From a virus, in the IMG/VR virus record IMGVR_UViG_3300029309_000008, positions 1 through 64,000 of that record: a stretch of DNA of 64,000 nucleotides; one strand, given 5' to 3'. Under the pieces are notes generated by a model that did not search any database, was not told the DNA's origin, and was given only the letters and a program-made list of their open reading frames with translations. Below are positions 46,901 to 49,900 of the stretch, piece by piece (positions within the stretch are counted from its first letter, which is position 1; every line of letters starts with the position of its first letter). The translations under genes and the position numbers were made by a program.

Positions 46901-49900
46901 CAGGTGTTGATAATACTCGAATGGAGGCAAGAACATTGGAGGCATTTAGACCTGAGTTTCCTCTAGAAGCCAAAAGAAATCCAGTTGTAATAAAAAAGAG
47001 CCCACTGTCGGCAGTTCATAATACTCTTGCATTGGCTGGGATGGTACCTGTTATAGGTGAACCTCTAGACTTACTTGATGCAGCTTTATACACTCTAGAA
47101 GGAGACTACGGAGGGGCTGCTTTAGCTGGTGCATCTGTTGTACCATTTATGGGTAGTGGTGCAGGGGCTTTAAGACTGACGGGTGCAGCCAAGACTCTGG
47201 CAAAAGGTGCAGAGGAAGGGTCTGATTTGAACAGGTATATAAAGCAGATAGAAAGGGAAAGAAGAATGTATGCAAATCCTGGTGCATCTCAAGAGGGATT
47301 TGATTATTTGCGATACTCGGAACAATTCCCCCAACTCAGTAAAGAATCAGAATATTTAAGTAATTTAGGCTTTTACAATATTAATCGTAAAATGGGTGCC
47401 CAAGCAGTAGATGATTACACAAGTTCTCATCATTTAGCAATGAATACAGCTTTTGATAATTTAAACTTGCCTAATCAAAAAAGAGCTTCGGCACTCAATG
47501 AGTTAGTGCTTGACAACTCTAAAAGAATGGCTAATGATTTAGATGATTTTATTTCGTCAGGAATAGGAGGAAGAACATCTAAACCCATCACTTTGTCTAG
47601 AGCATCAACAGATGAAGTAGTCAGAGTTGTTAATGCAGATAATTCTATTACTGTAAAAAAGTTTAGCCAGTTACAACCTAACGATGTTATCTTAGAGACT
47701 AAGTTTACTTCCTACTATGACCCTAACAGGCCTTTATTTAACCAAAATATGTTTACTAAAACTGCCGATGATTATGGATTAGTCTCTAAGACACCATCGC
47801 TTGGTTACTTCCCAGTTCGTCAACAAACATATATACCACAGGGTACAAAACTAGGCGTTCCTACTTTCCACGGTAAAGCAAGGATGTTTCAAGATGAAGC
47901 TGAATTTATAGGGAATAGGTTTGGTGTTAGAAGATTCACTGGCATGAATCCAGATGGAAGTTATGGTTTCCAACTTATAGGGGGCTTTCAAGATGGAGGA
48001 AGTGTCTCAGGCGAAGAACCTGTAAGTGACAATGTCATGGATAATGTGGAAGAATCTATTGACTATAGTCAGTATAATACAGACATACTTATTATGGCTT
48101 CTAAATTTTCTATGAGTCCTGATGAGTATATTGAATATTATAATAAGGGAATACAAATGCTCAATGCAGGAAATACCATAGACGATTTAGTTAATATGGG
48201 TTATGGCAATAAAGAAGCATTATTATCTATGTTTCCTGGGGCATCTGTAGAGTCTAGAGGCAAATCCCAAACTCTTCAACAAGAAATAAAGCATATTCCT
48301 GTAACTAATTTACTAGAGGATACTGACTCTAGAACAGATGTGTCTAAGGTAGGAGCTGATATGATAGAATTTGTTGATAGTAGTAAAACAAAAGAAAGTG
48401 CTACATCAAAAATGCAGTCGGGAGGTATATTTGAAAATCCCATAACATCTGCTATGGAGAGTATGGATGAGTTCGGTAATATGATTGTAAATCAAAATTT
48501 AAAAAATGCTCTAGGGGAAACAGTAGAAGATACCTTTGGATTTAACTTCTTACCCGATGATTCAAATTGTGAGGTGGAGGTGATTTACAAGGCACAGGAA
48601 GGGGGATATTATATGAATCAAGACAATGTAGTTAGACAATTAGTCGAAGACGCTGGAGACAGAGCAGGAAAAATTTATGATTTTATTTCAGACATGGGAG
48701 ACCTTGCTGAAGATATTATAGAAATATCAAAAAATCCAAATTATGTAAATCAAAATCAGCCCTTCCTTAATAAAGCACTGGATGCATTTAAATTGTATTT
48801 ATCAGGTACTCCCGCCCCAGTTAAGACAGAGCAAGGGGAGAATGCAGATAGTCCTGTTGCATTGACTCCTGCAAAAATTAATGCTAATAATATCACAGCT
48901 GCTATAGAGCAAGTAGCGAAAGATGACGAAAATCTAGCTACACTCCTGGGTATGACAGCTTACATGGAAAATTCGTATGGAGCGAATCCAAATGCTTACG
49001 GTAGAGAGTATACACATAGTTTTATGTCTCTTGATGACCCTTCTCTAAATCAAATTTTTGATATTAGAACTGGAGCTACTGATTATACAAAAGGTCAAAA
49101 AGCTATATTTAATATGTTTGAAAGCTTAGGCCTGCCGTCAGACAAAGAGTCGTTTACAGAACTTTTAGACAAGGACGACCCTCTCGCTTCTGTAGCCGCA
49201 GCTAGGGCGTACTATGCTACTGTGCCTGAAGCACTGCCAGCATCATCAGATACTGAAGAGTTATTTAATTACTTTAGTAAGTACTACAACAGAGGAGGTC
49301 AAGGCAAGTACCAAACTGAGGAAGAATCACTTAACAGGTTTTTAGAGGGCTATACTCGACTGGTAGAGCAAGAGGACTTTGCGAATGGCGGCACTGTTGG
49401 TGAAACGGGAAAAATACTAGTTTCTAGTAATGGAGTATTTGACCGTAATTATGAACCAGGCAAACCAGTGATTGTTCCTACAAGAAATGGTGTAATAACT
49501 ATGGACGGTGTTGATGAAGACCTTTTAGCTATAAGTAATCTTGGAGAGTTTCGATTTATGGATGCTGATTCTGGTAATTATCAATTTGAAGGTAAAACTG
49601 TTCTGGAAGTGCCTGTTAAAATGTTTTATGGTAAAGATGGCGGTCTAGCTGATTGGTTTAAAGAAGAGTGGGTAAGAATCGATACTGAGGGCAATATCAC
49701 AGGACCTTGTGGTACTATGAAAAAAGGCAAAGCCACTACCAGATGTCTTCCTAAAAAGAAAGCACAGTCCTTAAGCAAGGCAGAAAGAAAAGCAACTGCC
49801 CGTAAAAAGGTAAGAGGTTCTAAAAAGGGAAAACAGTTTGTAGCGAATACTAAGAAAGCCAAAGTGACGAGGAAAGATACGAAAAGATACGAAGCAGGAG

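Follow-up and report, generated by a model that had tools for sequence, protein, structure and literature searches.

Packaged phage ADP-ribosyltransferases (ARTs) and polyvalent proteins are both established ideas in the passages of PMC5512222 and PMC9503650 drawn on here. The former (Iyer et al. 2017), in the same passages, gives T4 Alt as a packaged and injected ART of the R-S-E type, predicts that polyvalent proteins are delivered together with the DNA, and names ARTs as the commonest modifying domain in that class. Here, we describe a related arrangement in a stretch of 64,000 nucleotides from an uncultured marine phage (positions 1 to 64,000 of IMG/VR virus record IMGVR_UViG_3300029309_000008; hereafter the window), taken from a contig of 89,756 bases that is judged 59% complete. 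An uninterrupted open reading frame (ORF) at 43918-50382 on the + strand encodes a protein of 2154 amino acids (aa), P0001, in which a junction module shared with bacterial polymorphic toxins directly precedes a putative, very diverged ART domain. We consider it probable, at roughly 0.6, that P0001 is loaded into the phage particle and ejected, and that its ART ADP-ribosylates a host target early in infection.

Results

A candidate ADP-ribosyltransferase domain inside a giant phage protein

P0001 holds all of the motifs named in the initial annotation of the window, the coordinates of which are correct to within a few bases, and no other ORF of at least 60 aa on either strand overlaps 47010-47990. 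The features of this part of the gene, including the match to the profile hidden Markov model (HMM) of the junction family, are given below.

46270..46287, + strand: FMQGGT linker, aa 785-790, the last xGG linker preceding the module
47014..47223, + strand: pre-toxin junction module, aa 1033-1102, delimited by the family HMM (conserved core aa 1034-1079)
47017-47154, + strand: this core, the first segment HNTLALAG..VVPFMG, aa 1034-1079, hydrophobic and Gly/Ala-rich
47221..47988, + strand: ADP-ribosyltransferase-like domain, aa 1102-1357, with an N-terminal helical part followed by a core from AVDDYT..MNTAF (47404) to GNRFG (47925)
47404-47454, + strand: AVDDYTSS..MNTAF, helix motif
47584-47601, + strand: PITLSR
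47599..47601, + strand: Arg1228 of PITLSR, the predicted catalytic Arg, aligned with R of the reference 'vYR' and of T4 Alt 'ITLYR'
47701-47718, + strand: KFTSYY
47710..47712, + strand: Ser1265 of KFTSYY, first Ser of the S-T-S equivalent, aligned with 'fvSTS'
47833-47853, + strand: IPQGTKL
47887-47907, + strand: FQDEAEF
47896..47904, + strand: Glu1327-Ala-Glu1329 of FQDEAEF, the E-x-E, aligned with 'E.EviLpRG'
47980..48000, + strand: GGFQDGG linker, aa 1355-1361, which closes the module

Linkers of the form xGG punctuate P0001, and FMQGGT is the likely N-terminal boundary of a module of aa ~790-1360. As first annotated, the ART-like domain terminates at the GGFQDGG linker.

We interpret aa 1102-1357 as a very diverged R-S-E mono-ADP-ribosyltransferase-like domain of ~255 residues of the Alt/VIP2/C3 kind, whose fold and activity are predictions from sequence. 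The Arg, Ser and (E/Q)-x-E positions are those that we take to be catalytic. The R-S-E catalytic positions of ARTs were also drawn from passages of PMC5512222. A relative of the domain is P0006, a 1214-aa phage protein from a 5-kb metagenome contig (L030, 339-3983), which carries two diverged ART-like copies at residues 52-310 and 881-1130. By BLASTP, the window domain shares 44% identity with copy 1 (E 1e-63) and 25% over 264 residues with copy 2 (E 1e-17); copy 2 reads LILHRG ... GFTSTS ... GEGEILLPR and is nearer the canonical R / S-T-S / E-x-E-I-L-L-P-R form. Alignment A1 has four rows, namely the window domain, that of its close relative L001 and both P0006 copies. All four rows keep the Arg, the Ser and the two Glu unchanged, with the three copies only 25-48% identical.

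We compared a six-row family alignment of the domain with the P0006 copies, by hhalign, to 18 reference ARTs: T4 Alt (126.9 bits to PF03496), C3 of phage c-st (186.5 bits), eight Alt-like proteins from phages that are 29-59% identical to T4 Alt, and eight C3/EDIN/VIP2/iota-like proteins from plasmids. Against all 18 references the match reaches a probability of 95.0% (P 3.5e-8, score 60.7, 143 columns), against the C3 set 89.5% (P 2e-6, score 48.7, 144 columns) and against the Alt set 76.0% (P 2.3e-5, score 43.3, 95 columns). The null scores of 100 column-shuffled queries have a mean of 12.8, a standard deviation of 2.0 and a maximum of 21.2, and the reversed query scores 16.8. The motifs fall in register, with AVDDYT..MNTAF on Yt..y..IN, LDDFIS on LDsAf, PITLSR on i.vYR, FTSYY on fvSTS and DEAEFIGNRFG on E.EviLpRGt, so that the R of GNRFG falls on the R of the reference LpRG. 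In addition, phrog_3895, 'ADP-ribosyltransferase exoenzyme toxin', matches P0006 copy 2 (residues 982-1130) at E 0.0029, and when small local target sets were searched with an HMM made from the 18 references, E-values of 7e-8 to 1.6e-8 were obtained for the P0006 gene and of 2.4e-5 for the L031 copy. The relation to ADPrib_exo_Tox (PF03496) that was anticipated at the outset is therefore upheld as profile-profile homology to members of the family (95.0%), and not as a match to the PF03496 model, which is lacking at E<=1.

A junction module shared with bacterial polymorphic toxins

The segment of aa 1033-1102 scores 91.7 bits against an HMM of 153 segments from 150 other proteins, from which the window was excluded, and hhalign places it on the module profile at a probability of 99.9%. 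The family consensus reads H..LD.AG.VPV.GE.AD..NA..Y..EGD..NAALSAA.AIP..G. When aa 1031-1357 (a 327-aa query) were searched exhaustively with phmmer against 1.84 billion representatives, 638 proteins were found at E<=1e-3, most of which align only to the junction module; among the 150 matches listed, 148 align only inside query residues 1-167, mostly 1-100. The junction is 47% identical over 75 aa to residues 1301-1368 of a 1457-aa RHS-repeat protein (P0007), where it occupies the pre-tip region, and 62% identical over 37 aa to a 2895-aa SpvB/TcdB/RHS protein (P0008), just upstream of PT-HINT.

Pfam was scanned at E<=0.01 over 123 module carriers, namely the window segment and the 122 of the 148 hits that are no longer than 450 aa. 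Among the families listed (25 of 39), PT-HINT occurs four times, T7SS_signal three times, and Tox-REase-9, AHH and EndoU twice each, with single cases of Ntox28, Colicin_D, two deaminase families, Tox-REase-7, NucA/NucB, Ntox30, Ntox5, PAAR, RHS and ADPRTs_Tse2. A loose pattern of the junction motif is present in 133 of the 150 proteins, and a median of 140 aa (quartiles 108-186) remains to the C-terminus, a length that fits a toxin tip and counts for a pre-toxin position of the module. The module, of ~50-70 residues, is widespread in bacteria, placed ahead of the nuclease, deaminase or other tip of Rhs, PAAR and type VII secretion system (T7SS) proteins. There it lies between a scaffold for delivery (Rhs cage, PAAR or T7SS signal) and a tip that can be exchanged. 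We also observed that six of the 123 junction-module proteins weakly match the Pfam translocation domain Diphtheria_T (best E 0.0026).

In P0001 the module ends ~20 residues before the start of the ART-like domain and lies directly N-terminal to it. The initial annotation had proposed just this order, a pre-toxin module followed by an R-S-ExE ART-like domain in a giant phage protein, and both parts are recovered here (HMM 91.7 bits; hhalign score 60.7). It had also called the module 'pre-toxin TG'; a pre-toxin module of bacterial polymorphic toxins is indeed present (91.7 bits), and it is the family name PT-TG that fails. PF14449 gives no match at E<=1 on P0001, P0002 or a 437-aa piece, none in a six-frame search of the whole 89.8-kb record, and is absent among the families listed for the 123 module carriers. 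According to a passage of PMC13483458, PT-TG is marked by a loop of 15 residues in which Gly, Asp and Arg are conserved; of these, the window segment shows the G-D but lacks a matching Arg. One bona fide PT-TG was compared, from Bacillus cereus plasmid pFORC13 (30.7 bits to PF14449), and it proved unrelated, with E 2.9 against the junction HMM and an hhalign probability of 0.7% (score 13.7, 7 columns; 50 shuffles, mean 9.9, maximum 16.6). A second PT-like helix at aa 494-533 (45397-45516) is likewise not supported as a member of the junction family (HMM i-E 89 in the window and 2.5 in L001; hhalign 4.3%, score 17.4 against a maximum of 19.5 in 50 shuffles). No Pfam or NCBIfam model matched the junction module in the scans made, and the module deserves its own family definition. 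Among phages, tblastn of the module against 50,697 records gave no match; in the related IMG/VR phage L002 (118 kb, 99% complete), a 1496-aa ORF also has this junction module (aa 455-520), in front of an unrecognised domain.

The occurrence of this junction in antibacterial Rhs, PAAR and T7SS toxins could speak for a true polymorphic toxin that acts against competing bacteria, either released at lysis or displayed on the particle, as proposed for MuF toxins; according to PMC5576092, such MuF toxins of temperate phages exist. Several observations make this highly improbable. In agreement with the initial annotation, no immunity gene was found beside the ORF: the next ORF, which starts 86 nucleotides past the stop codon (an 85-nucleotide gap), encodes 1021 aa, and neither a Macro nor an ADP-ribosylglycohydrolase (ARH) domain is matched at E<=1 in the 89.8-kb record. 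Neither RHS, PAAR, LXG nor a trafficking domain gives a Pfam match in P0001. The ART is internal, with ~800 aa following it, and its family is found only in giant proteins of phages.

The ART-like family was found in two phage lineages only

Intact homologues of P0001 that are 92-95% identical are found in P0003-P0005, L001 and L028. Apart from proteins at this level of identity (P0003-P0005, P0157, L001 and L028), P0006 is the only relative of the ART-like domain. Among the 150 matches listed of 638, the ART family accounts for two of the 1.84 billion library representatives. A profile word-search for more members yielded one fragment, P0157; scans of viral contigs found only L001, and none with P0006 as the query; and a metagenome scan gave five loci, all within the two known lineages. 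For the reference ARTs, a PF03496 search of 401 Planctomycetota genomes had 0 matches, and a word-index search from T4 Alt listed no protein that shares less than 97% identity with it; the references were therefore taken one by one from phage and plasmid records.

The two P0006 copies have no junction module in front, and none of the 150 bacterial junction carriers matches the ART family HMM at E<0.1. We therefore regard the junction and the ART as independent cassettes that were joined in the lineage of the window. The 89.8-kb record holds no second ART or junction module. As a separate observation, each ART copy ends at an xGG linker (GGFKDGG in P0006 copy 1), and such linkers recur with a short conserved tag, as GG-TAPKYQG and GG-TTPKYQG in P0006 and as GG-ALPKAQ and GG-SLPKAQ in L002 (8666-13156).

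The gene lies in a variable slot of the structural block

The nearest cultured relatives of the window phage are the distantly related Cellulophaga phages phi4:1 and phi17:2, with terminases 32% identical; crassvirus terminases are more distant, at 24-29% identity. P0001 belongs to a run of giant ORFs on the + strand that extends from 37047 to ~74.9 kb (a block of roughly 38 kb) within the structural module, and tail-fibre-like genes sit between the capsid-type gene and this run. The landmarks of the region are as follows.

12634-14781, + strand: large terminase
14841-17561, + strand: portal
18864-20534, + strand: capsid-type virion protein
37047..43928, + strand: upstream neighbour of P0001, 2293 aa, homologue of the phi4:1 virion structural protein gp042 (phrog_37948, E 1.5e-286; tblastn 37%)
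53543..57397, + strand: downstream conserved virion protein, homologue of phi4:1 gp040 (phrog_36695, E 2.2e-21), which closes the variable slot

The product of 53543..57397 also matches the gp040 frame of phi4:1 at E 5e-23 and a frame of L031 at E 2e-98 by BLASTP. Frame by frame, BLASTP identifies gp045-like (34933), gp043-like (36088) and gp042-like (37032) homologues upstream, and gp040-like (53534) and gp039-like (57419) homologues downstream. In the record of phi4:1, gp035-gp051 carry the label structural, 'based on experimental MS/MS proteomics analysis' (MS/MS, tandem mass spectrometry); they include gp041, which occupies the same slot as P0001. P0001 is thus probably carried in the virion, as judged from synteny alone with these phi4:1 genes.

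The slot between the gp042-like and gp040-like genes differs completely in four related phages, ranging from 739 to ~3600 aa in one to four ORFs.

phi4:1 (L026): gp041, 739 aa
Window phage: 2154 + 1021 aa
L029/L031 phage: 935 + 810 + P0006-like 1214 + 683 aa
L002: a 1496-aa ORF directly after the gp042-like gene

Since the content of the slot differs in each phage between conserved virion genes, we conclude that the ART cassette lies in a hypervariable, cargo-type slot.

Because the case for packaging comes only from gene position, an active ART that is not injected must be weighed here, one that acts late in the producing cell like T4 ModA/ModB or that has phage proteins or DNA as its substrate. 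In its favour, some R-S-E ARTs with E-x-E act on guanine in DNA. The domain is found, however, inside a 2154-aa protein in the structural block, between homologues of virion proteins, and is not encoded by a separate small gene as ModA and ModB are, and we hold this explanation to be quite unlikely.

Further features of the block were noted. The motif DVDGD at 59510-59524 (ORF 57425-61030, aa 696-700) is the only D-x-D-G-D among six giant ORFs scanned (37047 to 61002, reaching the end of the window). In multisubunit-type and crAss-like virion RNA polymerases, a motif of this form is the signature of metal binding. Near its N-terminus, P0001 has an HExxH motif (HEADH, aa 164-168; 44407-44421), which could indicate a zincin-type peptidase like those by which polyvalent proteins are processed; this region of P0001 has no Pfam match. 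Residues 1908-1990 of P0001 (49639-49887) match phrog_23735 and phrog_14910, to which PHROGs assigns no function, and share 40-51% identity with short hypothetical ORFs in Synechococcus phages S-CRES1 and S-CRES2 and in Phage C75C1. Other modules of P0001 match PHROGs without known function, and the ART is the sole enzymatic domain identified.

Proposed packaging, ejection and activity of the predicted enzyme

We propose that the multi-module 2154-aa protein would be packaged in the particle and would enter the host together with the DNA on ejection. Early in infection the ART domain would then, in the manner of T4 Alt, transfer ADP-ribose from NAD+ to a host target. The initial annotation had likewise suggested an injected ART, which might serve host takeover or anti-defence. 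The domain may be cut free at GG linkers (FMQGG, aa 785-790; GGFQDGG, aa 1355-1361). Among ARTs, the E-x-E form suggests an arginine acceptor, and the target would most likely be a protein arginine. The enzyme would act in the next host, and the cell that makes it is in any case bound to lyse, so that no immunity protein would be required. The junction in the phage protein may be a conserved recombination joint, or may aid the hand-over of the attached domain after ejection. More speculatively, the ~60-residue junction could be a portable 'toxin hand-over' element, independent of the delivery system and common to Rhs/PAAR proteins of the type VI secretion system (T6SS), to the T7SS and to phage cargo, which would aid the enzyme, once ejected, in crossing or engaging the inner membrane of the target cell or serve as the joint for exchange of tips between phages and bacteria; we put this forward tentatively and regard it as doubtful.

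A number of results weigh against the proposed role of P0001. At E<=1, Pfam gives no ART match for P0001, P0002 or P0006, while PF03496 does match the positive controls T4 Alt and C3 at the scores given above; PHROGs has no match at E<=5 for the window's own copy, NCBIfam holds nothing relevant for the window protein, and a sequence search of the PDB returned 0 matches. The four-row profile found only a BON-domain chain in the PDB (E 0.3), which we judged to be noise, and it gives P 0.42 against C3 alone and P 0.028 against T4 Alt alone. When the window lineage alone is aligned with the 18 references, hhalign yields a probability of 8.3% (four rows) or 52% (single sequence), with P 0.004 to 1.5e-4, and these matches cover only the part from the helix to the Arg; with the HMM built from the references, the window ORF has an E of 2.2. 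As the signal of the window lineage alone is weak, the ART assignment is transitive through P0006. Moreover, of the three copies, that of the window departs most from the canonical motifs: Ser replaces the aromatic residue that precedes the Arg, T-S-Y-Y stands in place of S-T-S, and EFIGNRFG in place of E-v-L-L-p-R-G. The ratio of non-synonymous to synonymous substitution rates (dN/dS) between P0001 and L001 is 0.34 (320 codons), which counts for the proposed role but is weak evidence because dS to this nearest relative is only 0.087. With regard to delivery, tblastn of the ORF against phages matched only aa 1908-1990, in hypothetical proteins of which none is shown to be in virions.

Taken at face value, the negative direct searches and the P of 0.42 against C3 alone would fit an R...S...ExE pattern that arose by chance in a non-ART domain. 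Against this stand the score of 60.7 compared with a null maximum of 21.2, four motifs in register over 143 columns, and the independent PHROG match on a paralogue (P0006 copy 2), and we grant a chance pattern only a very slight likelihood. The departures from the canonical motifs (LSR, TSYY, EFIGNRFG), together with the absence of any ART model that matches the window copy directly, could instead indicate a domain that has the ART fold and serves as a pseudo-enzyme or as structural filler of the cargo protein, without transfer of ADP-ribose. We regard this as unlikely, since the Arg, the Ser and both Glu are invariant over copies that are 25-48% identical, which is hard to explain without selection on catalysis. 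An injected, catalytically active ART is thus the reading that we favour.

Discussion

The locus represents an R-S-E ART family that is found only in giant proteins of two phage lineages and that, in one of them, is an internal cassette joined via a module of contact toxins; it thereby links the fields of phage cargo and of interbacterial toxins. It offers a testable case of a candidate injected enzyme in phi4:1-like phages, the cultured relatives of which infect Cellulophaga, and it suggests that new effectors might be sought in the variable slot flanked by the gp042-like and gp040-like genes. If the hand-over proposal were true, phage ejection would be a further route for cassettes of the polymorphic-toxin type, and the cargo slots of phages would be an unexplored reservoir of toxin and host-takeover domains. 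In the literature searched, we found no paper that describes the pairing of junction and ART in a phage protein.

Among described systems, the cargo proteins of crAss-like phages studied by Bayfield et al. in 2023 are reportedly large and encoded after the tail genes. We found no known cargo protein related in sequence to the window ORF, and the terminases are distantly similar (24-29% identical). Polyvalent proteins (Iyer et al. 2017) are, in the passages of PMC5512222 that concern them, likewise very large, composed of many modules and encoded with packaging and structural genes. The same passages assign their ARTs an H-Y-D active site (Tox-ART-HYD2 clade), whereas the ART of the window is R-S-ExE and so falls outside HYD2; of the hallmark domains of polyvalent proteins (MPTase, kinase and others), none has a Pfam match in P0001, which has only the HExxH motif.

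The pre-toxin modules of bacteria (Zhang et al. 2012; PMC3482391) share with the junction described here both the position before an exchangeable toxin domain and a sequence family present in Rhs, PAAR and T7SS proteins. Unlike bacterial pre-toxin proteins, P0001 is encoded in a phage structural block, has no Rhs, PAAR or LXG and no immunity gene, and continues for ~800 residues after the 'tip'. The C3/VIP2/iota exotoxin ARTs (PF03496) align with the domain at 89.5% over 144 columns that include the Arg, S-T-S and (Q/E)-x-E strands; they are toxins that Bacillota secrete and that target eukaryotic cells, whereas the protein of the window is from a phage and has no direct HMM match.

A close parallel is provided by T4 Alt and the Alt-like ARTs of Straboviridae (PF03496), which are likewise phage R-S-E ARTs encoded among late and structural genes. 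T4 Alt is a 682-aa stand-alone protein of a myovirus and is scored by PF03496 at 126.9 bits, whereas the ART described here has no match to that model at E<=1 and lies as a module, preceded by the junction, within a 2154-aa protein of a phi4:1-like phage. Both share the helix with Y..(S/G)......N and the motifs L-x-R, F-x-S-T-S and E-x-E, and the long insert that the Alt-like proteins carry between S-T-S and E-x-E is likewise present in the window domain.

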